From: Candidatus Heimdallarchaeota archaeon
Lineage (GTDB): Archaea; Asgardarchaeota; Heimdallarchaeia; Heimdallarchaeales; Heimdallarchaeaceae
Direction of reading: 5' to 3'
DNA: 45,301 nt
NCBI GenBank assembly: GCA_016839945.1
Contig: JAEOTE010000092.1
Location: forward strand, 1 to 45,301
In this document: positions 2,724 to 33,791 of the stretch, piece after piece
Layout: each line of letters starts with the position of its first letter
How positions within the stretch are numbered: position 1 is the stretch's first letter
Program-made: the position numbers and the translations under genes
The notes under the pieces: model-generated
Seen by the model: the letters and a program-made list of their open reading frames with translations, nothing else
What the model was told of the DNA's origin: nothing
Databases searched by the model: none

Positions 2724-4154
2724 CTAATCTTCTTCTAATTCTATTGTCTTCTTGTGCATTAGATGTCTTTCCCAATCAAAAGATATGTTTCCATCTTCAT
2801 GTTCAGTAAATGGAATATTCATTGATCCATAATCCGTAAGTAAATAGAAATCCATTACTTCAGGATCATCATTCTTAGGGATTAGTGGTGCTTCCCATTT
2901 CTGAGACCAGTCATCATTTATTAGAAATAGAACCAATCCTCTTTGTTCTATTGTACAAGTGATTGTTTTTTTGTAAGCTTCATATCTACCACAAAGTTTG
3001 CGATAATGTTTCTTCCTCTTATAATAAGGCATTTCTTCCTCTGGATCTTTTCCTAACAATAAAGCAAAAGCAGTTAGCATTAAATAAACTGGAGTCACAT
3101 GGACGTTCTGTAATTGCGCATAAGTAAGGTTTAATTCAGGAATAAAGCCAACATATCCTCCTGATACACCAGACATTCCACCATGATATATTAATTTATA
3201 ACCAAAGAAATTCTCAAAAATTCTCCAACCATACCCATAAGCTGGTTCGACTCCAGGGCAATAGTGAACATAGTTTTGTGGTAAGTTTTTGTTGTGAGTG
3301 TCCCACATCTCCTTAACAAGATTTTCAGCTAACACCCTCTTCCCATTGAATTCTCCACCATTTAAGTTACATTGAAGGTAATTAGTAATCTCTTCAACAC
3401 TTGAAATTAATCCACCAGAACCTGCAATAAAAGGTCCTGATAACAGATCTGTAGAGCTTCTTTCGATTCGTTTATCTTTAATTGCCAAATTAAAACCTCT
3501 TGATGAATCTTTATCTTTTTTTACATCCTCAAGAGAAAAAGTGCTTCTATTCATTTCTAGAGGTTCTAAAATATTTTCTTTTACATAATCTTCAAATGAT
3601 TTTCCACTAATTTTTTCAACAATTTGACCAAGTAAAGCAAAACCTCCATTCCAATAATAATATTTGGTGTTTGGAGGACTTCGTAGTGTAGATTTTGAGT
3701 CATTCACATGAAAATAAAAATCATCCCAGTTACCCAAAGGAAATTCTGGAGCTTTTGCTTTGACTAATTGTTGATTCATTTGTGAAAAATAAAAAGTCAT
3801 AAGCGAAGGAACACCAGAAGCATGACTCATTAGATGAAGAATCTTTATTGGATTGTCTTCAAAGCCGATATCTACTGGAAGATATTTTGAAATTGGATCA
3901 TTAATATCTAATTTGCCAGCTTCATGAAGCTGTAAAATAGCCATACAAGTTACAGATTTTGTTATTGATGAAACACCATAGAGTGTTTCCAAAGAAGCTG
4001 GTTTTACATCTCCTTTTTCTCTAAGTCCAAATGCTCTCTGATATATTGGTTCTCCATTCTGTGTTATTAAGACTGAAAATCCTGGGATTTTTTCATCCCT
4101 CATAACTTTTACAACTTCATGCTCATATTTTTCCTTGAAAAGCTTTAAATCCAT
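2724..4154 (-). CDS. serine hydrolase, beta-lactamase / D-aminopeptidase (CubicO/Pab87-like) family
   Basis: SxxK (SITK), LMSHASG, YxN (YWN), HGG motif and a C-terminal extra domain; no signal peptide. Confidence 0.88.
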   Translation of the reverse strand: MDLKLFKEKYEHEVVKVMRDEKIPGFSVLITQNGEPIYQRAFGLREKGDVKPASLETLYGVSSITKSVTCMAILQLHEAGKLDINDPISKYLPVDIGFEDNPIKILHLMSHASGVPSLMTFYFSQMNQQLVKAKAPEFPLGNWDDFYFHVNDSKSTLRSPPNTKYYYWNGGFALLGQIVEKISGKSFEDYVKENILEPLEMNRSTFSLEDVKKDKDSSRGFNLAIKDKRIERSSTDLLSGPFIAGSGGLISSVEEITNYLQCNLNGGEFNGKRVLAENLVKEMWDTHNKNLPQNYVHYCPGVEPAYGYGWRIFENFFGYKLIYHGGMSGVSGGYVGFIPELNLTYAQLQNVHVTPVYLMLTAFALLLGKDPEEEMPYYKRKKHYRKLCGRYEAYKKTITCTIEQRGLVLFLINDDWSQKWEAPLIPKNDDPEVMDFYLLTDYGSMNIPFTEHEDGNISFDWERHLMHKKTIELEED

Positions 4155-4191: not shown

Positions 4192-4256
4192 AAAGTAACG
4201 TATAGTTTATAACATTTTTGCTAAACATTAATTTATTTCCCGAAAATCTTATATAT
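4192..4256 (+). promoter_or_regulatory. dppA promoter: imperfect dyad ACGTATAG-N15-CTAAACAT, then BRE-like CCCGAAAA and TATA-like TTATATA
   Basis: 31/37 nt identical by hand to 6144-6180, in the same position relative to a CCCGAAAA + TATA-like element. Confidence 0.65.
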
Positions 4257-4325: not shown

Positions 4326-6068
4326 TTGAATAAAAAATTGTTAGTAAGTGCAACATTTTTAACGCTAATCCTGATAGGAATGTCTCCTAGTTTAATGGTT
4401 TGGGGACAAGAACCTATCATTGGAGGAATTCTACATACTCCTCTTTCAGCTGACGCACATGCACTGAATCCATTCTCTTGGACAACAACTTATGAAGCTT
4501 ATATAATTTGGCACATATATGATCCTCTGGTACGAATGGACTTAGAAAATCAAGCATTTGCATGTATTGCTGAGAGTTGGTCACACAGTACCGACTATTC
4601 TGAATGGACATTTGTAATAAAAGACGATGTTTATTGGCATGATGGAAAAAAACTAACTGTTGATGACGTGTTTTGGACATACAATATGCTTTGGAATGAT
4701 ACTAACGTTCCAAGACGTAGTTGGCTTTTTGATGAGATAACAGATCTTCAGATTGTAGATAACACAATTGTTGTTTCATTTGGATGGGGACCAAAACCTG
4801 CAGACGTTCTTTATGATCTCGCAACTACACTCATAGTTCCTGAACACATTTGGGATGGTATAGACCTATATACATTCGCAAATGATGAACCAATTGGTAG
4901 TGGTCCATTTAAATTCGTTGAATGGGAAAGAGCACAATTCTTTAGATTGGAAACACATGACCAATATCAGTTCCCAATTTATGTTGATGGTAAAACAATA
5001 CCTATTATCAGCGAAGTTGAAGCCCAATTTTATGCACTAGCTGGAGGAGATATTGAAACAATGGCTAATCCTCCACCTGAATTAGAAGATGCAGCTGAAT
5101 TCTATAATTCCTCAGTTCACACAGCTCTTAATGATTACTGGGTTTACCTAGGAATGAATCAACGACGTTACCCAAATAATGTTACTGAATTTAGACAAGC
5201 TGTTTCGTATGGAATAGACCGTGACGAAATCGTTGAAATTATCAAATATGGTCGTGGTGCAGTAATGCCCGCTTCATGTAATTTACCATGGGGAACATAT
5301 TATAATCCAAGTGCTAAAACTTATCCTTACAATATAACTAAAACCATTGAAATGCTAGACGCTCTTGGGTGGACTGACACTAACGCTGATGATATCCGTG
5401 AAGATGGTCTTGGACAAGATTTAGAATTCGATGTTATAGTAAGTGCAGATGCTCAAGAATCTGTTGACACTGTTAAGTTCATTAAAACCTACCTTGAACC
5501 TGCAGGAATCAAAGTAAACGTAGTTCCAATCATTTGGGATGTTCTTTGGCAAACTGTTGGTGGACTTGGTCACATTGATCAAGACTATGATTATCCAGGC
5601 AAATATGATTATGACTGGGCAGTCCTAGGTTGGGTAGGTTTTTGGAGCGATTTCCATCCAAGCTCATTCTATTGGTTATTAAGTGCTGATAGATGGTGGG
5701 GATCAGATGATGTCAACATTCCAGGATGGAACAGTTCAGTTCGCTGGGAAGTAACAGACCTATGTAATGACACACTCTACTCAACAGATGACGCAGTTAT
5801 TGAAGCAAACATTGATTTAATACAAGAACTTGTTGCAGAAGATCTACCTTATGTACCATTACAAGTTAATGGTGGAACATACCTTTACAAAACAGATGAA
5901 TATAAAGGCTGGGAATTAGGTCCAACAGATGGTCCTGATAATTACTTCACTTGGCTAAGTATACAACTAATTAAACCACCAGAAGCTGGTCCAGGATTTC
6001 TTGCATTAGGTGCAATAATTACACTAGTAGTCAGTGTTGCCTTTGTAAGATACAGACGTAGAAAGTAA
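4326..6068 (+). CDS. dppA: peptide/nickel ABC transporter substrate-binding protein (family 5) with PGF-CTERM-like anchor
   Basis: Signal peptide, IYDPLV, WHDGKKLTVDDVFWT, PIGSGPFKF, FRQAVSYGIDR; C-terminus GPGF + TM helix + RYRRRK. Confidence 0.92.
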   Translation: MNKKLLVSATFLTLILIGMSPSLMVWGQEPIIGGILHTPLSADAHALNPFSWTTTYEAYIIWHIYDPLVRMDLENQAFACIAESWSHSTDYSEWTFVIKDDVYWHDGKKLTVDDVFWTYNMLWNDTNVPRRSWLFDEITDLQIVDNTIVVSFGWGPKPADVLYDLATTLIVPEHIWDGIDLYTFANDEPIGSGPFKFVEWERAQFFRLETHDQYQFPIYVDGKTIPIISEVEAQFYALAGGDIETMANPPPELEDAAEFYNSSVHTALNDYWVYLGMNQRRYPNNVTEFRQAVSYGIDRDEIVEIIKYGRGAVMPASCNLPWGTYYNPSAKTYPYNITKTIEMLDALGWTDTNADDIREDGLGQDLEFDVIVSADAQESVDTVKFIKTYLEPAGIKVNVVPIIWDVLWQTVGGLGHIDQDYDYPGKYDYDWAVLGWVGFWSDFHPSSFYWLLSADRWWGSDDVNIPGWNSSVRWEVTDLCNDTLYSTDDAVIEANIDLIQELVAEDLPYVPLQVNGGTYLYKTDEYKGWELGPTDGPDNYFTWLSIQLIKPPEAGPGFLALGAIITLVVSVAFVRYRRRK

Positions 6069-6085
6069 AGTTTAAAATACAAAAT

Positions 6086-6130
6086 TAAAGAAGAGAGTTG
6101 AAAGCTAAACTCTCTGGCTTTATTTTTTTT
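6086..6130 (+). terminator. hairpin plus oligo-T terminator downstream of dppA
   Basis: AGAGAGTT (6092-6099) / AACTCTCT (6108-6115) stem with 8-nt loop, extendable by TAAAG/CTTTA, followed by T8. Confidence 0.6.
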
Positions 6131-6143
6131 CAAAAAATAATTC

Positions 6144-6206
6144 AAAGTAATGTTTAGTTAGTAATATTTTTTCTAAACATATAGTTTTACCCGAAAAATT
6201 TAAAAA
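6144..6206 (+). promoter_or_regulatory. dppB promoter: perfect dyad ATGTTTAG-N15-CTAAACAT, then BRE-like CCCGAAAA and TATA-like TTTAAAAA
   Basis: Second copy of the element at 4192-4228; lies ~40 bp upstream of the dppB start. Confidence 0.65.
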
Positions 6207-6245
6207 TATTTTTGAATATTAAGGTTCAAAAGCGGTGTTTAGATA

Positions 6246-7238
6246 ATGGGTTTAAGAGGATATATAGCTAAAAAACTATTTTTTGCAGCTGTTGCTTTTT
6301 TTGTAGCAATTACAATTGTTTTCTTTCTATACCATGTTATACCAGGAAATCCAGCGAATATATTTGCAACCGATAGAACTGTTAATCCTGATCAAAGAGA
6401 TGCATTACTTGAAAGATGGGGGCTAAATGAACCTTTATGGAAGCAATATGGTATTTTTTTGAGGAATTTATTTCAAGGAGATCTTGGGTTCTCATATCTT
6501 CAAAAAATGCCTGTTACAGATGTTATTGGTGAATCTCTTCCTTGGACGCTTCTACTACTTGGAACGTCTTTTGTTTTAAATGCAGTTATAGGAATCTTTC
6601 TTGGAGCGTTTGTTGCATGGAGAAGAGGATCCAAATTAGATACAGGATTTGTATTAACATACAATTTCTATAATGCTATTCCTTTGTTCTTTGTAGGAAT
6701 GCTTTTTATTGCTTTATTTAGTTTCTATGTTCGAAAATGGGGATGGGGATTCTATTTTCCTGCATATGGAGCACAAACAGCAGGATCTTCGGAATGGGGA
6801 TTCTTTCCTCGTTTAGTAGATATTCTCTGGCATTTAGCTCTACCACTGACGGTACTAACTATAGCAGGTATTCTAGGTTGGTCATGGTTCATGCGAGGAA
6901 ATCTAATAAATATACTAACTGAAGATTATATTAAAACAGCAAGAGCCAAAGGATTAAATGAAAACCAAGTTTTGTATAAGCATGCTTTCAGAAATGCTAT
7001 CCTTCCAGTTGTTACTAACATAGGAATGAGTATAGGAGGATTAATTGGCGGAGCAGTTTTAATTGAAACGGTATTTTCATATCCAGGAACGGGAAGAATG
7101 CTCTATGAAGCACTCATTAGACACGATTATCCTCTAGTTCAAGGGGCATTTATAATCATATCAGGTTTGACTTTACTTGGATTGTTGATAGCAGAGATTA
7201 TTTATGGATTCATAGATCCAAGGATAAGAACAGAATAG
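6246..7238 (+). CDS. dppB: peptide ABC transporter permease
   Basis: GLNEPLWKQY, GDLGFS, EAA loop EDYIKTARAKGL, HAFRNA, ETVFSYPGTG, DYPLVQG, DPRIR. Confidence 0.93.
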   Translation: MGLRGYIAKKLFFAAVAFFVAITIVFFLYHVIPGNPANIFATDRTVNPDQRDALLERWGLNEPLWKQYGIFLRNLFQGDLGFSYLQKMPVTDVIGESLPWTLLLLGTSFVLNAVIGIFLGAFVAWRRGSKLDTGFVLTYNFYNAIPLFFVGMLFIALFSFYVRKWGWGFYFPAYGAQTAGSSEWGFFPRLVDILWHLALPLTVLTIAGILGWSWFMRGNLINILTEDYIKTARAKGLNENQVLYKHAFRNAILPVVTNIGMSIGGLIGGAVLIETVFSYPGTGRMLYEALIRHDYPLVQGAFIIISGLTLLGLLIAEIIYGFIDPRIRTE

Positions 7239-7246
7239 AGGTATTA

Positions 7247-8173
7247 ATGATGGCAACAATGCTTAATAAAAATAATATAATGCGTCGCTTCAAAAGATGG
7301 AACAAGTCATGGAAAGTCTTCAGTAGAAATTGGATGGGTGTTTCAGGCTTAATTATAATGCTATCACTAGTAACATTAGCAATCTTCGCTAAACAAATTG
7401 CTGGATATCATGTTGATGATAGAGATTCTGAAAACATTTTCCAACCACCGGTAGAAGGACACATTTTAGGAACTAATCGTCATGGCAATGATATTTTTTC
7501 CATACTATTGAATAGTCTTGGGATATCCTTAGCAGTAGGTGTAGTAGCTGGTAGTTTAACTGTAATATTAGGAACTACTATAGGAGTTGCGAGTGCATAC
7601 ATTGGCGGGAAATTTGACACTATAGTTATGCGGATAACAGACATAGTTTTGGTAATTCCTGCTTTACCTTTGATGCTTCTCCTAGCATCATTAGTCCCAT
7701 TAATTGTTGATAAACTTTCTTGGTTAGATACCATTCCTTGGTGGTCTATCATTGCATTTGTTTATGTTGTAGTGTTCTGGCCAGTTTCTGCAAGATTAAT
7801 TCGAGGACAAGCACTATCACTTAAACATAGAGCATTCATTACTAGTGCTAAATCTGCTGGTGCTGGAAATGGATATATTATATTCAAACACTTATTACCT
7901 AATGTCTTTCCATTAATGCTTACAATGATTATAACATCAATGAGACAGGCAATTCTATATGAAGCTTTCCTCTCATTTCTTGGGCTAGGAGATCCTTCAA
8001 ATTGGAGTCTTGGTAAGATGTTAAGTGTGGCTCAACAACAAGCTTCACTAGCTACAGGAGCATGGTGGATGTATCTCCCAGCAGGTATAGCTATTGCTCT
8101 CACAACTCTCAGTTTTGCTTTCATTGGAATTGCTTTTGATGAAATTGTAAACCCTCAATTAAGAAGGAGATAA
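7247..8173 (+). CDS. dppC: peptide ABC transporter permease
   Basis: HILGTNRHGNDIFS, MRITDIVL, ARLIRGQ, KHLLPNV, LSFLGLG, NPQLR. Confidence 0.93.
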   Translation: MMATMLNKNNIMRRFKRWNKSWKVFSRNWMGVSGLIIMLSLVTLAIFAKQIAGYHVDDRDSENIFQPPVEGHILGTNRHGNDIFSILLNSLGISLAVGVVAGSLTVILGTTIGVASAYIGGKFDTIVMRITDIVLVIPALPLMLLLASLVPLIVDKLSWLDTIPWWSIIAFVYVVVFWPVSARLIRGQALSLKHRAFITSAKSAGAGNGYIIFKHLLPNVFPLMLTMIITSMRQAILYEAFLSFLGLGDPSNWSLGKMLSVAQQQASLATGAWWMYLPAGIAIALTTLSFAFIGIAFDEIVNPQLRRR

Positions 8174-8177
8174 TACT

Positions 8178-9233
8178 ATGGCACTACTTGAAGTAAAAAA
8201 TCTTAAGACGTACTTTCATACAAGAGCAGGTTCAGTTAAAGCTGTTGATAATGTAAGTTTTAAACTAGGAAAAGGAGAAGTTCTTGGACTAGCAGGTGAA
8301 AGTGGTTGTGGAAAAACAACCACTTGTTTATCGATAATGCAAATGATTGACTTTCCAGGGGAGATCATGGAAGGTCAAATTATATACGAAAATGCATTCG
8401 AAGTTATTACAGAAAATCCAAGTAAGAGTTTTCGAGATAGAATCTTTAATAGAAACGTAGAGAATAAAAAACGAACTAAAAACCTACTTGAGTTTTCAGA
8501 AGCTGAGATGAGAAGTATAAGAGGCAATCATATATCTATGGTTTTTCAAGGAGCAATGAATGCACTAAATCCTGTACACAGAGTAGGTAATCAGATTCAA
8601 GAGGTTTTAAACATACATGAACCAGAATTGGAAAAAGACGAAGCTTGGGATAAAGTTATCGATATTCTTGAAACTGTTGGTATAGATTCAGTGAGAGCTA
8701 GAGATTATCCTCATCAACTCAGTGGAGGAATGAAACAAAGAGCTCTTATTGCGATGGCTTTAGTCAATAATCCCGATATAGTAATTGCAGATGAACCTGT
8801 TACTGCGCTTGATGTAATTGTTCAAGCTCAAGTTCTTAAAGCTACTAAAGAATTACAGAGAAAATTTGATTTATCTATGATAATGATAACCCATGATTTA
8901 TCAGTAATAGCTGAAGTATGTGAAACTCTAGCTATAATGTATGCTGGGAAATTAGTTGAGTATGGAGATCTTCGAACATTGTTTAAAGAACCCTTCCACC
9001 CTTATACTCAAGCCCTAATCAATGCCTTTCCAAGCATAGCAGGTCCAAAGAAAGATTTGTATGACATTGGTGGATTTCCTCCTGATTTACGCAATCCACC
9101 TTCAGGGTGTCGATTCCATCCTAGATGCTCTAAAGCGATGCCAATATGTAGTAAAAAAGAACCTTCAAACACTCCTATCAAAAATGGTTATGTCGCTTGT
9201 TGGTTATATGAAGAGGAGGAAAAGAGAAAATGA
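8178..9233 (+). CDS. dppD: peptide ABC transporter ATP-binding protein
   Basis: GESGCGKT, signature LSGGMKQR, Walker B IADEP, ITHD, C-terminal PPSGCRFHPRC...VACW domain. Confidence 0.95.
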   Translation: MALLEVKNLKTYFHTRAGSVKAVDNVSFKLGKGEVLGLAGESGCGKTTTCLSIMQMIDFPGEIMEGQIIYENAFEVITENPSKSFRDRIFNRNVENKKRTKNLLEFSEAEMRSIRGNHISMVFQGAMNALNPVHRVGNQIQEVLNIHEPELEKDEAWDKVIDILETVGIDSVRARDYPHQLSGGMKQRALIAMALVNNPDIVIADEPVTALDVIVQAQVLKATKELQRKFDLSMIMITHDLSVIAEVCETLAIMYAGKLVEYGDLRTLFKEPFHPYTQALINAFPSIAGPKKDLYDIGGFPPDLRNPPSGCRFHPRCSKAMPICSKKEPSNTPIKNGYVACWLYEEEEKRK

Positions 9234-11020
9234 CATCTTCAGAGATTTCAGATTATTCTTCAATCAGATTAATGAGAATGGCAGGATTTTCATTTCTAGG
9301 ATTGGCTATAATATTTGTTGTTCTGGAAATAATCGTTGTTTTTTTTGGTGAATTATCTTATCTTTCCATTATAACTTCTTTACTACTAAGTCTCTCAGTT
9401 GTAATTCTAGTTTTGTCACTTAGAAAAGTTGCTCTGCAAACTCCCAGTATTAGGAGAAATGTCATTATTGCTAGTAGCTGGTTAATTGGTTATATCTTCC
9501 TAACTATTATTTCAGAAACATTCTTTGTCTTTCTTATATTACAAGTTGCAGCATTTGTAATTGGGCTTATTTCTATGTTAGTAAGAATTATCTCATTTAC
9601 TCAATTAAATAATACTTTCAAACGATTATCTAAAATCGGCTATAATCTTGATTCACAGATTTTCTTACTTTATGGATGGTTTGCTGTTCTTTCAACTGTT
9701 GCATTAATAGTTTCTGTATATACCTTAAATCTTACAGTGATTATTGCTGTAGTAATCACAACTGTTGTAGGAGAAATTTCTCTTTTATTTGCAGTAGGTT
9801 ACAAATTAATTCAAAACTCAAATGCGATTAAAGATATTTTTGAGGGTGTACAAAAACGATTTCTAGATGATAGACCAGAACTAGAGGATCATGAAAACAT
9901 CGTAGTAGAAGCAGTTAATTTAGAAAAACTCTTCCCTGTAATATCAGGCTTTTTTGAAAGCATTTTCTCAATCGAAAGAATTAAAAACACAGGAAGAGCA
10001 ACTGCAAAATATTTCTCTAGCATTTTCTCAAAAGAACGAACTAAAACGATAAAAGAACTAACTAGAGAATATTTCGGGAAAGTATTTGAAGAAAGAGAAA
10101 AACTCTTTGTTCATGCAGTAGATGATGTTTCTTTTAGGATTCATAAAAGAGAAACTTTTGGATTAGTTGGAGAGAGTGGTTGTGGAAAATCAACTACTGG
10201 ATTACTCTTACTATATCTCTTAGAGAGTACTGGAGGTAAAATCTTTTTCAAAGGACTAGATTCTTCAGAACTTTCTGTCAGAGAACTTAAGGAAGTTCGA
10301 CGGTATATACAAATAATTTTCCAAAACCCGTATGAATCATTAAGTCCCCGTTTCAGCATTTTAGATATTATCGCTGAACCTTTGAGATTACTTAACATAG
10401 AGACAGATGAAGCTAAAATAGAAGAAAAGGTTAAAGAAGAATTGGAAAGTGTAGGGTTAATTCCTGCGGAAGATTTTATTGATAGGTTCCCACATGAGTT
10501 AAGTGGGGGACAGAGACAAAGAGTTGGTGTTGCAAGAGCTTTCATACTTGATCCTGAATTCATAGTTGCAGACGAACCTGTATCTATGTTAGATGTATCT
10601 ATCAGAGTAGGTGTTTTGAAAATAATGCGACAGCTTACTCTTGATAGAGGTACTGCTTTTCTTTTTATTACTCACGACCTTGCACTAGCAAGAGTCATGT
10701 GTGATAGAATTGCAGTAATGTATCTTGGTAGGATTGTTGAACAAGGGCCAACAGAAGAGCTGATTCAAAAACCTATCCATCCATATGCTAAAGCTCTTAT
10801 TGCAGGAGTCCCCAAACCTGATCCTGATGCAAAAAGAACAGAAGAGTTACCTATTATTGGTGAAGTTCCAAGTGGGATTGATGTTCCAGCTGGTTGCAGA
10901 TTTAATCCACGATGTCCTTTTGCAATTGACAAATGCAAAATTTATGATCCAAAACTTGAGGAGGTCGAAGAAAACCATTTAGTTGCATGTCTTCGGTATA
11001 AAGAAATCAATGATATGTGA
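9230..11020 (+). CDS. dppF: peptide ABC transporter ATP-binding protein (DppF/OppF-like) fused to an N-terminal ~6-TM domain
   Basis: About 195 N-terminal residues with six hydrophobic helices, then GESGCGKS, LSGGQRQR, VADEP, ITHD, GCRFNPRC. ATGA overlap with the dppD stop. Confidence 0.9.
   Translation: MTSSEISDYSSIRLMRMAGFSFLGLAIIFVVLEIIVVFFGELSYLSIITSLLLSLSVVILVLSLRKVALQTPSIRRNVIIASSWLIGYIFLTIISETFFVFLILQVAAFVIGLISMLVRIISFTQLNNTFKRLSKIGYNLDSQIFLLYGWFAVLSTVALIVSVYTLNLTVIIAVVITTVVGEISLLFAVGYKLIQNSNAIKDIFEGVQKRFLDDRPELEDHENIVVEAVNLEKLFPVISGFFESIFSIERIKNTGRATAKYFSSIFSKERTKTIKELTREYFGKVFEEREKLFVHAVDDVSFRIHKRETFGLVGESGCGKSTTGLLLLYLLESTGGKIFFKGLDSSELSVRELKEVRRYIQIIFQNPYESLSPRFSILDIIAEPLRLLNIETDEAKIEEKVKEELESVGLIPAEDFIDRFPHELSGGQRQRVGVARAFILDPEFIVADEPVSMLDVSIRVGVLKIMRQLTLDRGTAFLFITHDLALARVMCDRIAVMYLGRIVEQGPTEELIQKPIHPYAKALIAGVPKPDPDAKRTEELPIIGEVPSGIDVPAGCRFNPRCPFAIDKCKIYDPKLEEVEENHLVACLRYKEINDM
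9950..10095 (+). repeat. degenerate 60-bp (20-aa) tandem repeat inside dppF, about 2.5 copies
   Basis: 9961-10020 vs 10021-10080 match at 40/60 nt by hand. Protein FFESIFSIERIKNTGRATAK / YFSSIFSKERTKTIKELTRE / YFGKVFEEREK. Confidence 0.7.
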
Positions 11021-11059: not shown

Positions 11060-13312
11060 ATGAGTGAAAATAAATTCAATGAAATCGAAAATCTCATGAT
11101 CACTGGAGAGTACAGGAAATCATTAGATTTAATTTCAAAAGTTCAAATAAATAAACAATTAAATGATGATGAAGTATTCCATCTTCTATCATGTAAATGT
11201 ACATCTTTGAACTGCTTAGGTGAATATGAAGAAACAATTAAAACCGCAAGTGGATATCATATCGAAGCTAAATCTAAACAAAAAGCTTTATGTGAAATTG
11301 ATGCATTATTATTTACAATATTTGCATATTACAGATTAAATAAAAACGAAGAAGCATTAAGAAATGTAGAAAGCGTTGAAAAACTTCTGGAAGGATGTTC
11401 TGAAGAAGGATTGAATCATCGAAAATCAAGATTGCTAGCTGATAAAGCACTTCTTTATTCTAGCAAAGGAGAAGTTAATCAAGCTCTCGAATTATCACAA
11501 GAAAATCTTCAGCTTTGTCAAAAGATGAAAGTGCCACATTTACTAGCAAGAGCTCAGTACATATGTGGCATCATATACAATGATATGGGAGAGAATGAAA
11601 CAGCAATAGATTTCTTTGAAAGAAGTTTGGAGATAAGAGAGAAGCTACAGAATCATTATGACTTAGCTCATTCACTATTCAGACTAGGATACACTTGGAG
11701 GACTCTAGGTGTGCTGGATACTGCTCAAGATTATTTCAATAAAAGCTTAAAACTGAGAGAAAAGATTGGCAACCAACAGGATATTTCTTGGACTCTTTTA
11801 AATATTGGAGATATTCATCTTGCTAGAAAGGATTTGAAAGAAGCTCAGCAGTATTATGATAGTTCTCTTTTGATAAATCAAACTAATAATTTTGATTATG
11901 GAACTGTTTTTTCTTTGATAAGATTGAGTATGATATATGAAGATATGGGGAATCCTCAATTGGTTATAGACACTCTAGAGAAAGCTCTTAATTATTCGCA
12001 GAATCTAGAAATTGTTGGTCCTGAGGTTTTTGTTCTATTTGATTTAATAAATTTCGTCACTGACATTAATACTGAAATTTCTAAAGAATCAAAATCGGAG
12101 ATTAAAGAAATCGATCAAGAAACAATAGAATATGTCAAAGAGAAATTTAACATGTTGAGTGATCATCTGAATAGATTTTCTTTCATTAATTATCTTCATA
12201 GAATAAAGCTGTTTAATCAAATGTATCGACTTGCTAGAGCTTTAGTTCTTAAATCCAACGAAACTGCAAGAGATAAGAAAAAAGCTCAGAGATTGTTGGA
12301 AGAGATTACTGATGAAGATATCATTTCTTATGATTACACAATAATTGCAATGTCAAATTACAGTGAATTACTTGCCGATGAATTAAAAAAACATCTTGGA
12401 GAAGAAGGACTAGTTACCGAGTTATCTGATCTTTCACACATGTTATCACCGGATTATTCGCAAAGAGCATATGCAATAGCAGCAGAAAGTTTTCTTCATC
12501 AGACAAAAACAGCTCTTGAAGAGATAGATATAGCGAAAGCAAGGGAATTGCTTAGGAGAGCTCAAAACCTGAATAATTTCTTAATTTTGTACAACAAAGG
12601 TCCTACACCTTTCAGAATACTATATATTCTCCATACTAAGGAAATGAATTTAAACGGATTGAGCAAAAAACTTGGTATAACAAAAGGTGCTTTAACTAGT
12701 CATTTGAAATTGTTAACTAGTTTAGACTTAGTAAAAATCTCTAAAGAAACACAAGTACGTTCAGCTACTATGTTGAAAAAATACTATTCCTTAGGAGAAA
12801 AAGGAATAGAATTAATCCAAAGATTTGATTTAGATATCTTAGAATCAATTTCTAAAGGTAAAGAGGAGAGTAAATCTATTCTTGATACTCAAATGACACC
12901 TAGATTGTTAACTAAGATGATAAGAGATGTAACTTATTTAATTGACAAAAGTCAAAATTTCGTTGAAGAACAGATTTTAACTCACTCATTTAACAGTTCA
13001 GATGAGATAGAAAAACGATCTAATGAATTAGAAGTAGCTAGTAAATGCATAAAAGATTCTGAAGAAATTAAAATTGATAATTTGTTTCTAACGGAAAAAC
13101 AATACAAGGCTTATATGATGCTGTGGAAAGAGTTCAGAGATAAAGTTCAAGATGAAATTCTTACTGTAAATATTGATTCTTCTGAATATCATTCAGTAGA
13201 AAAACCAAATTATATTGTTCATCTATCTCTACCAATAAGAGATTTAATAGATCTAGAAAGATTTTTAGAAGAGAAAAGAAGAAAAGAAGAGAAGGAGAAG
13301 AAGATTTCTTAG
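11060..13312 (+). CDS. TPR-repeat protein with C-terminal ArsR-like winged-helix DNA-binding domain, putative transcription regulator
   Basis: TPR units (AIDFFERSLEIREKL, AQDYFNKSLKLREKIG); wHTH FRILYILHTKEMNLNGLSKKLGITKGALTSHLKLL...KKYYSL. Confidence 0.8.
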   Translation: MSENKFNEIENLMITGEYRKSLDLISKVQINKQLNDDEVFHLLSCKCTSLNCLGEYEETIKTASGYHIEAKSKQKALCEIDALLFTIFAYYRLNKNEEALRNVESVEKLLEGCSEEGLNHRKSRLLADKALLYSSKGEVNQALELSQENLQLCQKMKVPHLLARAQYICGIIYNDMGENETAIDFFERSLEIREKLQNHYDLAHSLFRLGYTWRTLGVLDTAQDYFNKSLKLREKIGNQQDISWTLLNIGDIHLARKDLKEAQQYYDSSLLINQTNNFDYGTVFSLIRLSMIYEDMGNPQLVIDTLEKALNYSQNLEIVGPEVFVLFDLINFVTDINTEISKESKSEIKEIDQETIEYVKEKFNMLSDHLNRFSFINYLHRIKLFNQMYRLARALVLKSNETARDKKKAQRLLEEITDEDIISYDYTIIAMSNYSELLADELKKHLGEEGLVTELSDLSHMLSPDYSQRAYAIAAESFLHQTKTALEEIDIAKARELLRRAQNLNNFLILYNKGPTPFRILYILHTKEMNLNGLSKKLGITKGALTSHLKLLTSLDLVKISKETQVRSATMLKKYYSLGEKGIELIQRFDLDILESISKGKEESKSILDTQMTPRLLTKMIRDVTYLIDKSQNFVEEQILTHSFNSSDEIEKRSNELEVASKCIKDSEEIKIDNLFLTEKQYKAYMMLWKEFRDKVQDEILTVNIDSSEYHSVEKPNYIVHLSLPIRDLIDLERFLEEKRRKEEKEKKIS

Positions 13313-14427
13313 TTTTTATTCCGATTTCTTTTAATTAATCCTCTTTTTCTAAGCTTCAATGTCCTTCTTACCGCAAGAACTATTTCTAAGAAAATGAAAA
13401 TTCCAAACGAATATAAAATAAAAACCAAAACCACAATCCTGACAAAAGGAGAATATGATTGATCAAATCTAAGGTAAAGATGAATCAAACCTGTCCCAAG
13501 TTCATAGAATGGTTGAAAAATGTCATAGATTATATTATCTTTATACTTACCTAGTACTTCAACTCCGTATGAGTCTATAATGAACATAGTATTTTTAGCT
13601 CTAAGTTGTACCATTAAAGCTTCTTCTGAGAATTCTGTTACATTAAGAGCTGTCCATGCATTAACTTTCCCTCCATCAGATCTATCTGGTGAATGCATAT
13701 CTGTTCCTGTAATTAATCCTATTGTCTCATTATGTTCTAGATAAAAATCATAAGATACGTAATCAAATACTTGACCGTTCACTACTTCAAAAAAATCTAC
13801 TCCCCAAGACATCAGTTGATTTCTAGAGGGTGTTATGTCATTAAAAGAATTCTCACTATACAGCAAATGATTTGCTACAACAACTCCACCTTGAGAATGT
13901 GCTTCTTCAATTGTTTCTATTATTTCATCATCTGTTGGATTAATTGGTATTTTTAAGTTCCATTCCTTTATTCCTAGAAGATTCAAATGTACTCTTTTTG
14001 TAGTCCATTCCATCCCTTGAAGAATAATAATCTTATCTTTATACTCTTGTGCTAATTCAGCTATCTCAAATGAATTCTCAAGTGAGTTATGATCAGTAAT
14101 AGCAAAAGCATTGAATCCAAGAGCTAAATGCCATTCAATACTTTGTCTGATGGTTAATTTTCCATCACTGTATTTTGTATGGGAATGTTGATCAAACAAT
14201 ATATCATATGTGATATTGGTTACAGGAATAAAAGGATCTATGTCTTCCCAACTATCTTCATAGTATTTTCTTTCCGCTGGACCAAATTTTGCCATAATAA
14301 CACTAAAAGCCATAACAGACCCTATAACAATAAAATATATCAATAGATGCTTAATTATTGTTGGTACCTTCTGCGGAAATTTCATGAGTAATTTAAGAGA
14401 ACAATTTATAAAAGCGTTAAGTTTCAC
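13309..14427 (-). CDS. membrane-anchored PHP-domain metallohydrolase
   Basis: PHP motifs DQHSHTKYSDG, ITDHN, GMEWT, ANH, GTDMH; TM helices at both ends. Start may be the ATG at 14385. Confidence 0.85.
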   Translation of the reverse strand: MKLNAFINCSLKLLMKFPQKVPTIIKHLLIYFIVIGSVMAFSVIMAKFGPAERKYYEDSWEDIDPFIPVTNITYDILFDQHSHTKYSDGKLTIRQSIEWHLALGFNAFAITDHNSLENSFEIAELAQEYKDKIIILQGMEWTTKRVHLNLLGIKEWNLKIPINPTDDEIIETIEEAHSQGGVVVANHLLYSENSFNDITPSRNQLMSWGVDFFEVVNGQVFDYVSYDFYLEHNETIGLITGTDMHSPDRSDGGKVNAWTALNVTEFSEEALMVQLRAKNTMFIIDSYGVEVLGKYKDNIIYDIFQPFYELGTGLIHLYLRFDQSYSPFVRIVVLVFILYSFGIFIFLEIVLAVRRTLKLRKRGLIKRNRNKN

Positions 14428-14447: not shown

Positions 14448-14834
14448 TCACATAGTCAAAGCATTATTTTTGTGTTCTAACGCAATTTCCTCAAATTTAT
14501 ATGTGACTTCACTTAGAAAACTAACTTTCTCTGCAGAATCAGAATAAAATCTCTCGAGCGTTTTTTCAATTATTTTTCCTGTATTTTCAGTTTTATTATC
14601 TTCTATTAAAATAGTAATTTCATAAGGTTCGGAAACAAAATTTTCAATAGGTTCGAGAATCATTTCTGTTGTATTTTCTCTGCGTATTCTTTTTAATTTT
14701 TTAATGCGTTTTTCATATTGAATAAGGAGACTTTTAAAAGATGTAAAATTAGCATTATTTTCATAGAAATCTCTAGCTTCAGTTTCCAATTTTAATGCAA
14801 ATTTTAGGACTGCTCCTAATGTAGCTAAGTTCAT
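14448..14834 (-). CDS. ferritin-like (rubrerythrin-like) four-helix-bundle protein
   Basis: Twin FALKLETEARDFYE / IEKTLERFYS pattern; 17 bp downstream of mmsA on the same strand. Confidence 0.6.
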   Translation of the reverse strand: MNLATLGAVLKFALKLETEARDFYENNANFTSFKSLLIQYEKRIKKLKRIRRENTTEMILEPIENFVSEPYEITILIEDNKTENTGKIIEKTLERFYSDSAEKVSFLSEVTYKFEEIALEHKNNALTM

Positions 14835-14851: not shown

Positions 14852-16309
14852 TTAGAACCATCTAGTAATAACTACTTTTTCTTCTGTAAAGAAATCCACA
14901 GCATTCTTCCCTTGTCCATGTAAATCTCCTTTGAAGCTATCTTTCATACCAGAAAATGGAAATGTAGAAATTGGTGCAGCAACACCAATGTTTATACCTA
15001 TGTTTCCAACATTTACTCTATATTGATATTCTCTAGCTATTTTTCCACTTGATGTGAAGATAGAGGATGCGTTTCCATATGGATTTTCGTGAATAATGTT
15101 AATAGCTTCATCTAGATTTTTAACATGAATAATTGGGATAACAGGACCGAAAATTTCATCTTGTGCTATAGTCATACTTGGTGTGACTTTATCAAATATT
15201 GTCGGTCCAATAAAGAAACCATTTAAGAATTTCTCATTTTTTCTTACATTTCTTCCATCAAGTATAATTTCGGCTCCTTCTTCAACTCCTGTTTGGATAT
15301 AACTTAGAACACTTTTCATTCCCGCTTCTGATGCAAGAGGACCCATTTGAATACTTTCATCTAATCCCTCACCAATAGTAATTTTCTTAGCAGCTTCTAA
15401 AAGAGATTCTCTGAGTGTTTCATATATATCCCCTACAGCTAGAAGTACTCCTCCTGCAAGACACCTTTGACCTGCATTTCCATAAAAGGAAGTTATTAAA
15501 TTTGGAATTGTTCTTTCAAGATTAGCATCAGGCATCACTGTAATAAAATTCTTTGCTCCTCCTTGGACTTGAACTCTTTTCCCAAATTCACCACATTTTT
15601 TATAGAGAAGTTTTCCAACTTTTGTTGAACCTACAAAAGATAATCCAACTGTATCAGGACTCTCAATAAGTGTATTAACAGCTTCTGCTCCACCATGAAC
15701 TAAATTGATAACTCCTTTAGGAATACCAATTTCATCAAATATTTCAAATTGTTTAACCATACTTAAAGGACATTGATCTGAAGGTTTCAGAATATAAGTA
15801 TTCCCTGTTGCAATAGCATAAGGCCAGAACCAAGAAGGAACCATTGCAGGGAAATTAAAAGGTGCTACACAAAAGAAGATACCCAATGGTTGTTTTATTA
15901 CCATTTCATCTATACCTGCAGCTACATCTTCAATATTATATCCCATCTGAAGCGTAGGTATTGTTGTTGCAGTTTCAATATTTTCGATTGTTCTTCTATA
16001 CTCTCCTCTGGATTCATCTATCGTTTTTCCATGTTCTATTGTTAACACTTCTGATAATTCATCAAAGTTTTCTTCTAGAGCTTCTCGAAAATCATATAGA
16101 TACCTAATCCTGGATTGAGCTGGAGTAGTTCTCCATCTCCAGAATGAAGTTTTTGCTGCTTCAATTGCTTGCAATGTTTCTTCTTTTGTACTTATAGGTG
16201 ATTTAGCAATAATTTCTCCAGTTGCTGGATTAATAACATCTCTAGTTTTGTCTGTTACAGATTCAATCCATTTTCCATTAATGTAATTCTTTAAAACTTC
16301 TCCATTCAT
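14852..16309 (-). CDS. mmsA: CoA-acylating (methyl)malonate-semialdehyde dehydrogenase
   Basis: APFNFPAMVP, LKPSDQ, SFVGSTKVG, RVQVQGGAKNF (no ELGG glutamate, typical of CoA-acylating ALDH), GQRCLA, EIFGPV, FFTEEKVVITRW. Confidence 0.92.
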   Translation of the reverse strand: MNGEVLKNYINGKWIESVTDKTRDVINPATGEIIAKSPISTKEETLQAIEAAKTSFWRWRTTPAQSRIRYLYDFREALEENFDELSEVLTIEHGKTIDESRGEYRRTIENIETATTIPTLQMGYNIEDVAAGIDEMVIKQPLGIFFCVAPFNFPAMVPSWFWPYAIATGNTYILKPSDQCPLSMVKQFEIFDEIGIPKGVINLVHGGAEAVNTLIESPDTVGLSFVGSTKVGKLLYKKCGEFGKRVQVQGGAKNFITVMPDANLERTIPNLITSFYGNAGQRCLAGGVLLAVGDIYETLRESLLEAAKKITIGEGLDESIQMGPLASEAGMKSVLSYIQTGVEEGAEIILDGRNVRKNEKFLNGFFIGPTIFDKVTPSMTIAQDEIFGPVIPIIHVKNLDEAINIIHENPYGNASSIFTSSGKIAREYQYRVNVGNIGINIGVAAPISTFPFSGMKDSFKGDLHGQGKNAVDFFTEEKVVITRWF

Positions 16310-16457: not shown

Positions 16458-17759
16458 GTGATTTATTTGAATTCCAAAGAAGTAATAAAAAAAGATAAAG
16501 AATTCTATATTCAAGGGTATGCAAGAGTACCTGTTGTTTTTACAGAAGGTAAAGGTGCTATGTTAAAAGATATTGATGGAAAAGAATACATTGATTGTTT
16601 TGCTGGAATCGCGGTTACTAATGTAGGTCATGCTCATGAAAGATTAGTTAAAGTTGCCAAAGAACAAATGTCAAAATTGATTCATACATCAGGTCGGTTC
16701 TTTAATGTTCCACAGACACTTCTAGTAGAGAAACTAGCAAAAATAACTCCTGGTGATTTAAAATACACATATTTATGCAATAGTGGAACAGAAGCAGTAG
16801 AAAATGCAGTTAAGTTGGTTAAGAAATATGCTTATTCACAAGGAAAAACAGGAGCAGCTTTAATAGCTTTAGAATGTTCTTTTCATGGAAGACTAGGGTA
16901 TTCTCTAACATTAACAGGACAAGCAAAATACAAGAAAGGTTTTGGAACTTATGCTAATGCTCCAGGAGTTGTTCATGCTCCAGCACCATATACTTACAGA
17001 TCTAAGTTATCAGAAGAAGAATGTGGTATAGATGCTGCATTAGCTATAGAAACAACAATAGATAGGCAAACAACGGGAGATGTAGCAGCTTTCATAATGG
17101 AACCAATATTGGGAGAAGGAGGAATTATAATCCCACCTGATTCTTATTTTAAAACTCTTGTAAGCATTTTAAAAGAGAGAGATGTTCCATTCATATTGGA
17201 TGAAGTACAGACTGGATTTGGTCGCACAGGCAAGTTGTTTGCTAGTGAGTATTGGGATCTTAAACCTGACCTTATGACATTAGCAAAAGGACTTGGAGGA
17301 GGAATGCCTATTGGCGCTGCAATTGCTACTAGTAGGATAGCTGATTGCGTAGAATCAGGAGATTTCTTCTCTACTTATGGAGGAAATCCAGTTTGTAGTG
17401 CAGTAGCTTTAGAAAATATATCTATCCTATCTGATGAGCAATTAATTAACAATTCAGCTAAAATGGGTAAAATCTTTCTAGAAGAATTGACTGAAATGAA
17501 AGAGAAGAAACCAATCATTGGTGAAGTAAGAGGAAAGGGTTTGATGATAGGAATAGAATTAGTCAAAGATCAACAATCAAAAACACCTGCTTCAGCTGAA
17601 GCAAAAAAGATTGTAACATTTCTCAAAAACGAAGGGATCATAATTGGTTTAGGTGGTATATTTGGAAATGTTCTACGATTACAACCTCCCCTATGTATAG
17701 ATGAGGATCAAGTGGTTAAAGTATTAGAAAAAATTAAAAAAGGAATCAACTTGCTTTGA
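16458..17759 (+). CDS. class III PLP-dependent omega-amino-acid aminotransferase (GabT/AGXT2/ArgD-like)
   Basis: NSGTEAVE, SFHGR, EPILGEGG, DEVQTGFGRTG, LAKGLGGG, STYGGNP. Confidence 0.92.
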   Translation: MIYLNSKEVIKKDKEFYIQGYARVPVVFTEGKGAMLKDIDGKEYIDCFAGIAVTNVGHAHERLVKVAKEQMSKLIHTSGRFFNVPQTLLVEKLAKITPGDLKYTYLCNSGTEAVENAVKLVKKYAYSQGKTGAALIALECSFHGRLGYSLTLTGQAKYKKGFGTYANAPGVVHAPAPYTYRSKLSEEECGIDAALAIETTIDRQTTGDVAAFIMEPILGEGGIIIPPDSYFKTLVSILKERDVPFILDEVQTGFGRTGKLFASEYWDLKPDLMTLAKGLGGGMPIGAAIATSRIADCVESGDFFSTYGGNPVCSAVALENISILSDEQLINNSAKMGKIFLEELTEMKEKKPIIGEVRGKGLMIGIELVKDQQSKTPASAEAKKIVTFLKNEGIIIGLGGIFGNVLRLQPPLCIDEDQVVKVLEKIKKGINLL

Positions 17760-17770
17760 ATAACATCCTA

Positions 17771-18727
17771 TTATTCTTTATAACAGCTTAACACTGCATC
17801 CCAGGCAACTTCGGAAGCTTCAATTCCAAAGGAAGTTAAAGGTAATTTTTTGTTTTCTATCTCTTGAGTGCTAACAATGTAAAGTGAATCACCATCATTA
17901 ATAGCATGAAAAGGTTGTATTGCACGAGCCATTGAAGCATGAATTTGTCTTCCAGCTTGTCTTAAAGAATAATCATCAAATTTCTGATTGGTTACTATTA
18001 GAGTTAGAGTTGTGTTTGTTGTAAGATTTTCATTCCTATCAGCTATTTGTGTATTAATATATTCTTTTGCATTAACTCTCTCATTTTTTGTTCGATCTAA
18101 AAATCCTCTTACAATTTCTCCATCTCGGTTAATTATTGCTCCTAGAGCATTTACTACTGTAAAAACTAATATTTTGGTATCTCCTACTTTGGTATAAGCT
18201 CCTCCTTGTCCTGCCATTTCAGCATATGAAAAATCTAGGCATTTTCCTACTGAAGCTGATATGCCTGCACCTTGAGGTCCTAATGGAAATTTACCTTCTA
18301 CAGCTATTTTCAAGGCTTCTCTTCCTAAATTTTTATCTGGATAGATTGAATTCTTTCTAGGTCCAAAATCATAGATTATTGCACCAGAGACTAATGGTAT
18401 TTCCAGCCAATTAGGAGAGTAATTCCTCCATTTGAGTAATTCAGCTGATACACCAGTTATGGCTTCATATCCCCATAAAGACCCTCCAGCAAAACAGATG
18501 GCATCAGCATAAGTTCTATTCTGTCCAATTACTCCAGGGGCTCCTCCTCTAATATCACTAGCCATTTTGACTCCTTTAGGAAAATAAAAAACTGTACATC
18601 CTGTTGGACCATCCTCATATTCAGCTATACCTATTTTTAATCCAGGAAAATCAAATTTTAAAATTGGTTCTTTGAAGGAAGTATTTAGCTTTAGCTCAGC
18701 ATCATCATTGGATATTAAATCATTCAT
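17771..18727 (-). CDS. peptidase S58/P1 family Ntn hydrolase, NylC (6-aminohexanoate-oligomer endohydrolase)-like
   Basis: FDFPGLKIG..YEDGPTGCTV, RGGAPG, IIYDF..R...YPDKNLG, SASVGK, GQGGA, VVNALG, autocleavage N|TT, IHASMARAIQPFH...DGD, ASEVAWDAVL. Confidence 0.88.
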   Translation of the reverse strand: MNDLISNDDAELKLNTSFKEPILKFDFPGLKIGIAEYEDGPTGCTVFYFPKGVKMASDIRGGAPGVIGQNRTYADAICFAGGSLWGYEAITGVSAELLKWRNYSPNWLEIPLVSGAIIYDFGPRKNSIYPDKNLGREALKIAVEGKFPLGPQGAGISASVGKCLDFSYAEMAGQGGAYTKVGDTKILVFTVVNALGAIINRDGEIVRGFLDRTKNERVNAKEYINTQIADRNENLTTNTTLTLIVTNQKFDDYSLRQAGRQIHASMARAIQPFHAINDGDSLYIVSTQEIENKKLPLTSFGIEASEVAWDAVLSCYKE

Positions 18728-18851
18728 ACAGAAAGTTGGAAATTAAATTATTAAGAGTTTCTTATTAAATAAAAAGAAAGTGAAGAATTATCGTCTTCAT
18801 TTCTTAAATGTAATTATATTTATATTACCAAAATATTGCCAATTTATAAGG

Positions 18852-20111: not shown

Positions 20112-20132
20112 AAAAAAAAGGAAGATGCGAAT

Positions 20133-21531: not shown

Positions 21532-21560
21532 CGTACAAAGTGATTTTTAGTACGATAGAA

Positions 21561-30161: not shown

Positions 30162-30254
30162 AGTAAATCTAAATTTACTCTAAAAATCAGAATACTTTTA
30201 TTGAACTAAAAATCAGTATAATTAAATCTTTAATAGTTAAAGAGGAGAAATTTA

Positions 30255-30710: not shown

Positions 30711-30724
30711 CAATCACTATATTT

Positions 30725-31774: not shown

Positions 31775-31896
31775 TTCATCACCAATTAGATGTTTATTTT
31801 ACTGTATTTAGTTTTACTATCTTTTAATCTTTATTAAAATAGTTTTTAATGTAGTACATAATAATACTTACTGTAAATTCAAGAGATGCTTTTTGC

Positions 31897-32664: not shown

Positions 32665-32743
32665 GAATAACAATATTCAAATAAAGTAGAAAATTCTTCC
32701 TTATTAGCAAAATAACAAAATAATACCTGAGAGTGATTTTCTT

Positions 32744-33781: not shown

Positions 33782-33791
33782 GGTTGGTTTC

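Follow-up and report, generated by a model that had tools for sequence, protein, structure and literature searches.

A NylC-type hydrolase gene of a Heimdall-group archaeon and the gene island in which it lies

What would an archaeon do with a relative of NylC, the 6-aminohexanoate-oligomer endohydrolase encoded on pOAD2 of Arthrobacter/Paenarthrobacter sp. KI72? The question is raised by a gene on contig JAEOTE010000092.1 of the Candidatus Heimdallarchaeota assembly GCA_016839945.1, of which the whole stretch of 45,301 nucleotides (hereafter, the window) was analysed. A preliminary description, drawn from the DNA letters alone, had recognized in this gene a NylC-like enzyme of the S58/P1 family of N-terminal nucleophile (Ntn) hydrolases in a probable Asgard archaeon. 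On balance, we consider that its product is probably a cytoplasmic NylC-type amidase, one of a set of interchangeable amide hydrolases attached to an island of genes dealing with non-standard amides, and that nylon is not its native job.

The ten motifs on which the preliminary description had relied were all found, by a script check, once each and in collinear order in the open reading frame (ORF): FDFPGLKIG starts at residue 25, YEDGPTGCTV at 37, RGGA at 60, IYDFGPRKNSIYPDKNLGREAL at 118, GISASVGK at 155, GQG at 173, NALGAIINRDGEIVRG at 193, NTT at 238, HASMARAIQPFHAINDGD at 263 and ASEVAWDAVL at 304. In the phmmer alignment with NylC, Y119, K162 and N193 are equivalent to Tyr146, Lys189 and Asn219, the cleavage site N238/T239 is equivalent to Asn266/Thr267, and D278/D280 correspond to Asp306/Asp308, which have a functional role in NylC. 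The Asn/Thr site and the Tyr, Lys, Asn and DGD equivalents that had been claimed are therefore present, and they are conserved across the clade. Over 69 aligned NylC-type rows, T239, D278 and D280 never vary, an aromatic residue (Y, F or W) always fills position 119, the cleavage-site Asn is kept in 68, the Lys in 60 and the Asn of the N193 column in 65. The ratio of non-synonymous to synonymous substitution rates (dN/dS) against a 90%-identical ortholog is 0.14, and the gene is under purifying selection. By homology to NylC, a 35-kDa precursor would cleave itself between Asn238 and Thr239 (codon at 18011-18013), giving an alpha subunit of about 26 kDa and a beta subunit of 9 kDa that starts with the predicted nucleophile. 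The N-terminal Thr239, helped by Lys162 and Asn193, would then attack amide bonds, while the aromatic ring of Tyr119, probably supplied by a neighbouring subunit, would line the active site. In NylC itself, cleavage occurs at Asn266/Thr267 and yields subunits of 27 and 9 kDa, with Thr267 as the nucleophile and Lys189 and Asn219 as presumed catalytic residues (PMC6021441). Membership of the S58/P1 family in its NylC-type form, and with it the mechanism class, can be regarded as almost certain. No signal peptide or transmembrane segment was found in any of 22 Asgard-clade N-termini, and the protein is, to judge from its sequence, cytoplasmic.

Within S58, the protein falls on the branch of NylC rather than on that of DmpA and BapA, as had been proposed, and sequence search, family profile and structure comparison agree on this point. 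Pfam PF03576 (Peptidase_S58) matched residues 26-293 (E 3.6e-11; 43.6 bits against a cut-off of 23.9), and no NCBIfam model matched the protein. The resemblance is far from accidental: a phmmer search against PDB chains retrieved NylC (5y0l, 3axg, 7yu0 and others) over residues 12-315 with E 1.3e-73 and 251 bits, followed by Nyl12 (230), Nyl50 (104), Nyl10 (74) and ThnT (48 bits), with DmpA and BapA undetected at E<=1. A profile built from 27 homologs scored 364 bits for NylC, 315 for Nyl12, 166 for Nyl50, 129 for Nyl10 and 90 for ThnT, and it still missed DmpA and BapA at E<=10. The AlphaFold2 monomer model (pLDDT 91.2, pTM 0.91) was overlaid on NylC, a check that the preliminary description had suggested, and Foldseek gave a TM score of 0.93 at 44% identity to the NylC precursor 7yu0_A, compared with 0.81 for Nyl50; ThnT reached 0.69, and BapA and DmpA 0.61-0.64 with 13-14% identity. 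The Foldseek probability was 1.00 for NylC, Nyl50, ThnT, BapA and DmpA, in keeping with the alpha-beta-beta-alpha sandwich fold. DmpA and BapA (1b65, 3n2w) thus share with the window protein PF03576, the self-processing fold and the hydrolysis of non-alpha or non-L amides, and they use the same genomic slot in sister genomes, as described below; however, DmpA-type enzymes cleave at Gly/Ser, whereas the window protein has Asn/Thr. Indeed, the DmpA-type paralogs of two related genomes (G049 and G062) show Gly/Ser in the very columns where it has Asn/Thr, and the Gly/Ser site, the Ser nucleophile and the high similarity that mark the DmpA/BapA type are all absent from it. The placement rests on these score and TM rankings and on the cleavage-site columns, NylC, DmpA and BapA themselves lying outside the tree described next, and in none of them does the protein group with DmpA/BapA.

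The host assignment also stands. The nearest genome record is a contig from a Candidatus Heimdallarchaeota metagenome-assembled genome (MAG; isolate YT1_048), which carries a 90%-identical ortholog in the gene order of the window (PHP, hyp128, MMSDH, aminotransferase, NylC-type gene, beta-helix protein and S8; see Table 1 for these names), and the window itself encodes Cdc6/Orc1 and a TFB-type Zn-ribbon protein. Its G+C content is uniformly low, about 0.27-0.36, with no break at the NylC-type gene. A protein search returned 4,493 homolog clusters at E<=1e-3. After three near-identical matches came hundreds of homologs at 53-61% identity, from Chloroflexota, Cyanobacteria, Poribacteria, Deinococcota and other bacteria as well as from Asgard MAGs. 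Given this number of clusters, and the fact that public Asgard homologs (Heimdallarchaeota, Hodarchaeales, Promethearchaeota and 'Asgard group') are already annotated as 'P1 family peptidase', the protein is no rarity. The gene was found in 7 of 400 Asgard genomes, that of the window included (E<=1e-20), and in 4 of the 24 other genomes of its genus. A maximum-likelihood tree was computed from 65 rows, with DmpA-type paralogs as the root. In it, the ten named Asgard sequences lie on one side of a branch with UFBoot/SH-aLRT support of 100/99, inside a 20-row clade that holds no named bacterium. The initial observation was correct, and so were the family and the host assigned to the gene.

The neighbourhood of the gene provides a hint of its role. 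The island (Table 1) combines a Pab87-type peptidase, an Opp/Dpp-type ATP-binding cassette (ABC) importer, a TPR-HTH regulator, a PHP-domain protein, a conserved 128-residue protein (hyp128), a coenzyme A (CoA)-acylating methylmalonate/malonate-semialdehyde dehydrogenase (MMSDH) and a class-III aminotransferase. The assignment of MMSDH is clear-cut against PDB, with 467 bits to 1t90 and 242 to the next aldehyde dehydrogenase family. The aminotransferase lies beside or near the NylC-type gene in five of six other Asgard loci, which span three families and differ in orientation; in three of them (G031, G035 and G049) the two genes follow each other on the same strand, aminotransferase first, and are separated by about 30-70 nt. 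In G031, ten genes run on one strand, namely those for the binding protein, permeases, ATPases, TPR-HTH regulator, MMSDH, hyp128, aminotransferase and NylC-type enzyme, with the Pab87-type gene divergent from them. G062, a genome of a different family, has a compact co-directional series of MMSDH, hyp128, a luciferase-like oxidoreductase, Amidohydro_3 and the NylC-type gene; its aminotransferase gene diverges from MMSDH, and its Pab87 and Opp genes are found 12-20 kb upstream. In the G031 locus (L015:7355-8979, minus strand, contig G031:C174), the gene next downstream of the NylC-type one, an Amidohydro_3 gene, is broken into two ORFs of 415 and 123 residues which jointly span the Pfam model, owing either to a frameshift or stop (a pseudogene) or to an assembly error.

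The same chassis recurs in other genomes of the family. MMSDH orthologs occur in 13 of 31 family genomes, including all five of the genus that have a NylC-type gene, and none of the 18 MMSDH-negative family genomes has such a gene. MMSDH adjoins the aminotransferase in all 11 assessable family loci, and eight further contigs keep around it the series (Pab87), Opp, TPR-HTH, (PHP), hyp128, MMSDH and aminotransferase. Orthologs of hyp128 adjoin MMSDH in nine other loci; an Atlas feature score of 0.89 to Ferritin_2/Rubrerythrin clusters gives a weak lead on this protein. The PHP gene keeps its position in four genomes (G020, G019, G032 and G011), and TPR-HTH orthologs with 43-75% identity lie between transporter and MMSDH in six (G031, G019, G022, G032, G011 and G035), with another nearby in G021. 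The importer accompanies the island in eight (G031, G062, G019, G022, G025, G032, G011 and G035), and Pab87-type orthologs with 48-65% identity in four (G031, G062, G022 and G025). The Pab87 family was described in 2009 only from organisms living near deep-sea hydrothermal vents (PMC2651629); in the window, such an S12 peptidase with octamerisation domain is encoded by an Asgard archaeon.

The gene that follows the aminotransferase at its 3' side is an amide hydrolase in every one of the 11 assessable family loci, and its family varies. The slot holds a NylC-type S58 enzyme in G000 (the genome of the window), G020, G031 and G035 (contig C41), a DmpA/BapA-type S58 enzyme in G025, G032 and G040, an Amidohydro_3 protein in G021, G035 (contig C174) and G011 (there after a 1.3-kb gap), and an FmdA/AmdA protein in G019 and G022. 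The DmpA-type gene in the slot is a true relative of DmpA and BapA, with 316 bits to 1b65 and 315 to 3n2w; the CN_hydrolase, Amidohydro_3 and FmdA genes of the island score below every NCBIfam equivalog cut-off. Since the aminotransferase tree does not group by the type of hydrolase downstream, the hydrolase has been swapped repeatedly beside a vertically inherited aminotransferase. For the same reason, the notion that the aminotransferase and NylC-type genes travel as a cassette was rejected; a strict complementarity of NylC-type and DmpA-type genes was also discarded, since G031 and G035 hold both in one island. The G035 MAG has two close copies of the aminotransferase gene (L016:2-574 on C41 and L129:741-2015 on C174), which may be paralogs or represent two collapsed strains; the NylC-type gene comes after one copy and Amidohydro_3 after the other. 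The window's own genome encodes elsewhere a second S58 paralog, of DmpA type (G000:C21:23894-24967, L135), that is 46% identical to the island-type DmpA in G062. Selenocysteine was considered for this paralog and rejected, the in-frame TGA of its orthologs in five sister genomes being a true stop that had been read through.

These observations can be integrated in the following model. The Opp/Dpp transporter would bring in oligopeptide-like compounds, possibly under the control of the TPR-HTH regulator, and non-standard amides or peptides, containing beta-/omega- or D-amino acids, would be broken down inside the cell. That the NylC-type enzyme plays a part in this island we regard as likely. 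In the sub-mechanism that we favour, it would free beta- or omega-amino acids (beta-alanine, beta-aminoisobutyrate) from imported oligoamides, the class-III aminotransferase would turn them into (methyl)malonate semialdehyde, and MMSDH would convert the latter into acetyl- or propionyl-CoA. This sub-mechanism is put forward tentatively, because of the invariant pairing of aminotransferase and MMSDH, the precedent of a beta-alanine operon and the sharing of the slot with DmpA/BapA-type beta-aminopeptidases. A class-III transaminase with an MMSDH-type dehydrogenase makes up a characterised beta-alanine catabolic operon (PMC4907197), the adjacent pair of Pseudomonas sp. AAC being KES23458 (omega-transaminase) and KES23460 (malonate-semialdehyde dehydrogenase), and beta-alanyl substrates are handled by both DmpA and BapA (PMC9570944). 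An importer is linked to such genes beyond Asgard archaea too, since a plasmid of Variovorax boronicumulans (NZ_CP138497.1; L106:1-6481) carries a five-gene peptide-type ABC importer directly before a NylC-type gene (50% identity), which an M81 metallopeptidase gene follows.

A broader proposal, which we hold to be doubtful, is that the native work of NylC-type enzymes is to hydrolyse beta-/omega-aminoacyl oligoamides inside the cell, and that the Heimdall-group island is a pre-industrial counterpart of the nylon-oligomer pathway. Its parts would be the Dpp/Opp importer, a beta-lactamase-fold exopeptidase, the NylC-type endo-amidase, an omega-transaminase and a semialdehyde dehydrogenase. As already in the favoured sub-mechanism, the logic would resemble that of NylD and NylE, with amide hydrolysis giving an omega-amino acid, then a semialdehyde and then an acid or acyl-CoA, as in the series NylC, (NylB), NylD and NylE. 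NylE is a non-acylating adipate-semialdehyde dehydrogenase, whereas the enzyme of the Asgard island is of the CoA-acylating C3 type. If the proposal is true, nylon hydrolysis would be latent across the family, the natural substrates being already nylon-like, for instance beta-alanine- or gamma-aminobutyrate-rich oligoamides in sediment necromass.

Several observations weigh against a role of the NylC-type enzyme in the island, or against the beta-alanine variant of it. In the window, the aminotransferase and NylC-type genes are convergent, with stop codons 11 bp apart, and therefore cannot be co-transcribed. The PDB scores of the aminotransferase single out no substrate, GabT, its best match, scoring 265 bits and the racemase/epimerase relatives 238-249; structures of GabT, racemase, epimerase and acetylornithine aminotransferase all fall within 238-265 bits, and it stayed below every NCBIfam equivalog cut-off. 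An FmdA-type enzyme releases ammonia and not an amino acid, so that a general amidase island fits the slot better than a strict beta-alanine pathway. The NylC-type gene of G019 lies away from the island, with two Amidohydro_1 genes, a patatin, LuxC and an M14 peptidase as neighbours. Since the Asgard copies form one clade, their synteny reflects shared ancestry in part and is not independent evidence. Outside Asgard archaea, a class-III aminotransferase was nearby in one of 80 metagenome loci (mostly about 70% G+C) and MMSDH in none, and four loci from bacterial genomes had neither nearby; the linkage is thus Asgard-specific and may not describe the general function of the family, of which it was rejected as a general trait. 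Autoprocessing, oligomeric state and substrate of the protein are themselves inferred. Finally, a 37-bp element occurs at 4192-4228 and 6144-6180 (31 of 37 positions identical), upstream of the binding-protein gene and of the first permease gene (dpp promoters), with CCCGAAAA after each copy and, in the second copy, the dyad TGTTTAG-N15-CTAAACA. This dyad element was not found at the promoters of the NylC-type gene or of aminotransferase/MMSDH, and no further copy was found in the window at <=12 mismatches. A shared regulon based on it was therefore rejected, the element being confined to the two dpp promoters.

The alternative that survives best is the salvage of D-amino-acid peptides, for example from bacterial cell-wall debris, which would make the island an Asgard counterpart of the Pab87 locus of Pyrococcus. 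The NylC-type enzyme would then cleave D-aminoacyl or protease-resistant peptides, and the class-III enzyme would be a racemase or epimerase. The set of families is nearly identical to that of the Pyrococcus abyssi locus (Pab87-type peptidase, Dpp/Opp importer, class-III pyridoxal-phosphate (PLP) enzyme and, in sister genomes, Amidohydro_3), and the Pab87/CubicO-type gene stands at the island edge and is conserved in the four genomes mentioned above; the Asgard island adds MMSDH, the TPR-HTH regulator, hyp128 and the S58 hydrolases. Pab87 acts with D-stereospecificity; around its gene, P. abyssi has those for a PLP aminotransferase, a D-aminoacylase and a dipeptide ABC transporter, and no NylC-type gene is described in that locus (PMC2651629). 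Amidohydro_3 (the D-aminoacylase family) and DmpA-type 'D-aminopeptidase' genes use the same slot as the NylC-type gene, and the class-III enzyme obtains its 238-249 bits against P. horikoshii racemases and Ile 2-epimerase. However, GabT transaminases are still its best matches in PDB, and D-peptide salvage leaves without a role the MMSDH that stands beside the class-III gene in every assessable locus. We know of no NylC-type enzyme that is D-specific. We regard D-peptide salvage as unlikely to be the main explanation; nevertheless, it is compatible with the non-standard-amide island that we prefer, and both may be partly true, the island then being a general system for protease-resistant non-standard peptides. 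The island and its swappable slot suggest beta-alanyl/omega-aminoacyl oligoamides or D-amino-acid peptides as candidate native substrates of the NylC-type enzyme, and they fit in with a view of Heimdall-group archaea as organisms that scavenge recalcitrant, non-standard peptides.

A less probable explanation, to which we give a low likelihood, is that of a generic intracellular peptidase or amidase without metabolic tie to its neighbours, in an island that is a collection point for accessory hydrolases; adjacency to aminotransferase and MMSDH would then result from shared ancestry and insertion hot-spots. The partly inherited synteny of a single Asgard clade, the gene of G019 outside the island, the bacterial homologs lacking both partners and the want of a common promoter element in the window are all in line with it. 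So are the chemically unrelated hydrolases of the slot, FmdA included, and the S9, M20, CN_hydrolase, C45, M14 and patatin genes added at other loci. It accounts poorly, however, for a proximity that outlasts rearrangement and strand change in three Asgard families, where local alignments show 46-58% protein identity, for the confinement of the NylC-type gene, within the family, to MMSDH-positive genomes, and for the peptide-type ABC transporter before the gene on the Variovorax plasmid as well.

That the protein is a true nylon-oligomer hydrolase, selected or recently acquired for the man-made polyamide, is very improbable. NylC is its closest structurally characterised relative (3axg, 5xyg, 7yu0), with the same fold at 42-44% identity, the same Asn/Thr site and Thr nucleophile, equivalents of the Lys, Asn, Tyr and Asp residues and similar predicted alpha and beta sizes. 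Tyr103 stands at the position of the stabilising H130Y exchange of NylC, an interface residue, and Ala95 at that of D122. The NylC-type subfamily forms doughnut-shaped tetramers of alpha-beta heterodimers, and the window protein was modelled as a monomer. In contrast to NylC, its host is an archaeon, it is devoid of the first ~28 residues of NylC and, in the phmmer alignment, of the 10-residue loop Gly325-Asn334 that holds Arg330. The metagenomic nylon hydrolases Nyl12, Nyl50 and Nyl10 (9z0a, 9cxr and 9yys) belong to the same superfamily, with Thr-nucleophile chemistry, and are more distant than NylC; the structures of all three have been solved, and Arg330 of NylC is taken to correspond to Arg159 of Nyl12, which binds anions (PMC13015463). 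Counting residues from the conserved Lys onwards, Asp165 of the window protein seems to stand at the Arg159 position. Several facts disagree with a role in nylon degradation: the Asgard clade has diverged internally to 46-60% identity, with the support given above, and is far older than nylon; no NylA/NylB homolog of the pOAD2 type was identified in the window, where the only beta-lactamase-fold gene is the Pab87-type one with its octamerisation domain; and a cytoplasmic protein could not reach the polymer, whose degradation in vivo is therefore not expected. Drufva and coworkers made 95 homologs with pairwise identities of 30-50%, nearly 40% of which hydrolysed nylon, with no link between phylogeny and activity (PMC11601465). 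These authors stated that the native function of NylC homologs is undetermined and probably not nylon degradation (PMC11601465), with which the 'unknown natural substrate' of the preliminary description agrees. Archaeal terms were not found in the text of that paper or in one supplementary file, and our literature search found no paper that connects S58 enzymes with Asgard archaea or with an aminotransferase/MMSDH module. Candidacy for nylon depolymerisation is thus plausible and not distinctive, as about 40% of that diverse panel was active; taking the panel as a prior, promiscuous hydrolysis of nylon oligomers by the window protein is possible, if somewhat short of probable. Its practical value as a further candidate nylonase is modest, hundreds to thousands of homologs being known and activity in the panel being independent of phylogeny.

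Contamination of the MAG with bacterial DNA, or a transfer from bacteria in very recent times, would agree with the bacterial origin of the nearest relatives outside the Asgard clade (55-60% identity) and with the scarcity of the gene among Asgard genomes, but it can be practically dismissed given the even G+C content, the archaeal Cdc6/Orc1 and TFB-type gene on the same contig, the syntenic orthologs in several independent Asgard MAGs and the named Heimdall, Hodarchaeales and Promethearchaeota proteins in the same clade.

Table 1. Coordinates in the window of the NylC-type gene, its predicted subunits and the neighbouring genes
Feature	Position	Strand	Basis and remarks
Pab87/CubicO-type S12 peptidase, beta-lactamase fold	2724..4154	-	PF00144 E 8e-54 and PF13969 Pab87_oct; divergent from importer
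Opp/Dpp-type ABC importer: SBP_bac_5, two permeases, two ATPases	4326..11020	+	Pfam, NCBIfam
SBP_bac_5 binding-protein gene of importer	4326-6068		
TPR and ArsR-type HTH one-component regulator	11060..13312	+	TPR_12, HTH_5; after transporter
PHP-domain (CehA/McbA-type) metallohydrolase, hydrophobic termini	13309..14427	-	PF02811; NF038032 101 bits, cut-off 80
hyp128, conserved 128-residue protein beside MMSDH	14448..14834	-	no Pfam or NCBIfam match
MMSDH, CoA-acylating	14852..16309	-	TIGR01722 522 bits, cut-off 448.5
Class-III (GabT-like omega-) aminotransferase	16458..17759	+	PF00202 E 4e-120
NylC-type S58/P1 Ntn-hydrolase precursor	17771..18727	-	318 residues, ATG start, intact ORF, no signal peptide
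Predicted alpha subunit, residues 1-238, 25.8 kDa	18014..18727	-	residue map; ends at Asn238; holds Y119, K162, N193
Predicted beta subunit, residues 239-318, 9.0 kDa	17774..18013	-	residue map; holds D278, D280
Membrane-anchored beta-helix protein and S8 subtilase	18780-21323	+/-	

A few further observations concern bacterial homologs and other genes of the window. A distant S58 homolog (31% identity) with an Asn/Thr site is found in a Clostridioides difficile plasmid record (NZ_CP149720.1; L108:2986-3954), between birA and genes for the S component of an ECF transporter and a type III pantothenate kinase. This context could indicate a role related to pantothenate or pantetheine, consistent with ThnT being a pantetheine hydrolase. 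In the importer of the window, the second ABC ATPase (9230-11020, plus strand, 596 residues) has an N-terminal extension of about 270 residues: NCBIfam matches begin only at about residue 265-295, and orthologs align only from about residue 214-225 on. The 317-residue protein encoded at 21540-22493 (plus strand) gives a sub-threshold match to the TFIIB Zn-ribbon (25.2 bits against a cut-off of 29) with no cyclin-fold TFB core by Pfam, and may be a divergent TFB paralog. Further along, a 702-residue protein (24512-26620, minus strand) joins an SCP2 sterol-transfer domain (residues 83-174) to an arylsulfotransferase ASST domain (234-538). Lastly, a sugar-modification cluster at 29223-34928, which comprises a sulfotransferase, a hexapeptide acyltransferase, a NeuB-type synthase, a CMP-sugar cytidylyltransferase, a Polysacc_synt_2 dehydratase and a DegT aminotransferase, resembles a nonulosonic-acid pathway of the pseudaminic or legionaminic type.

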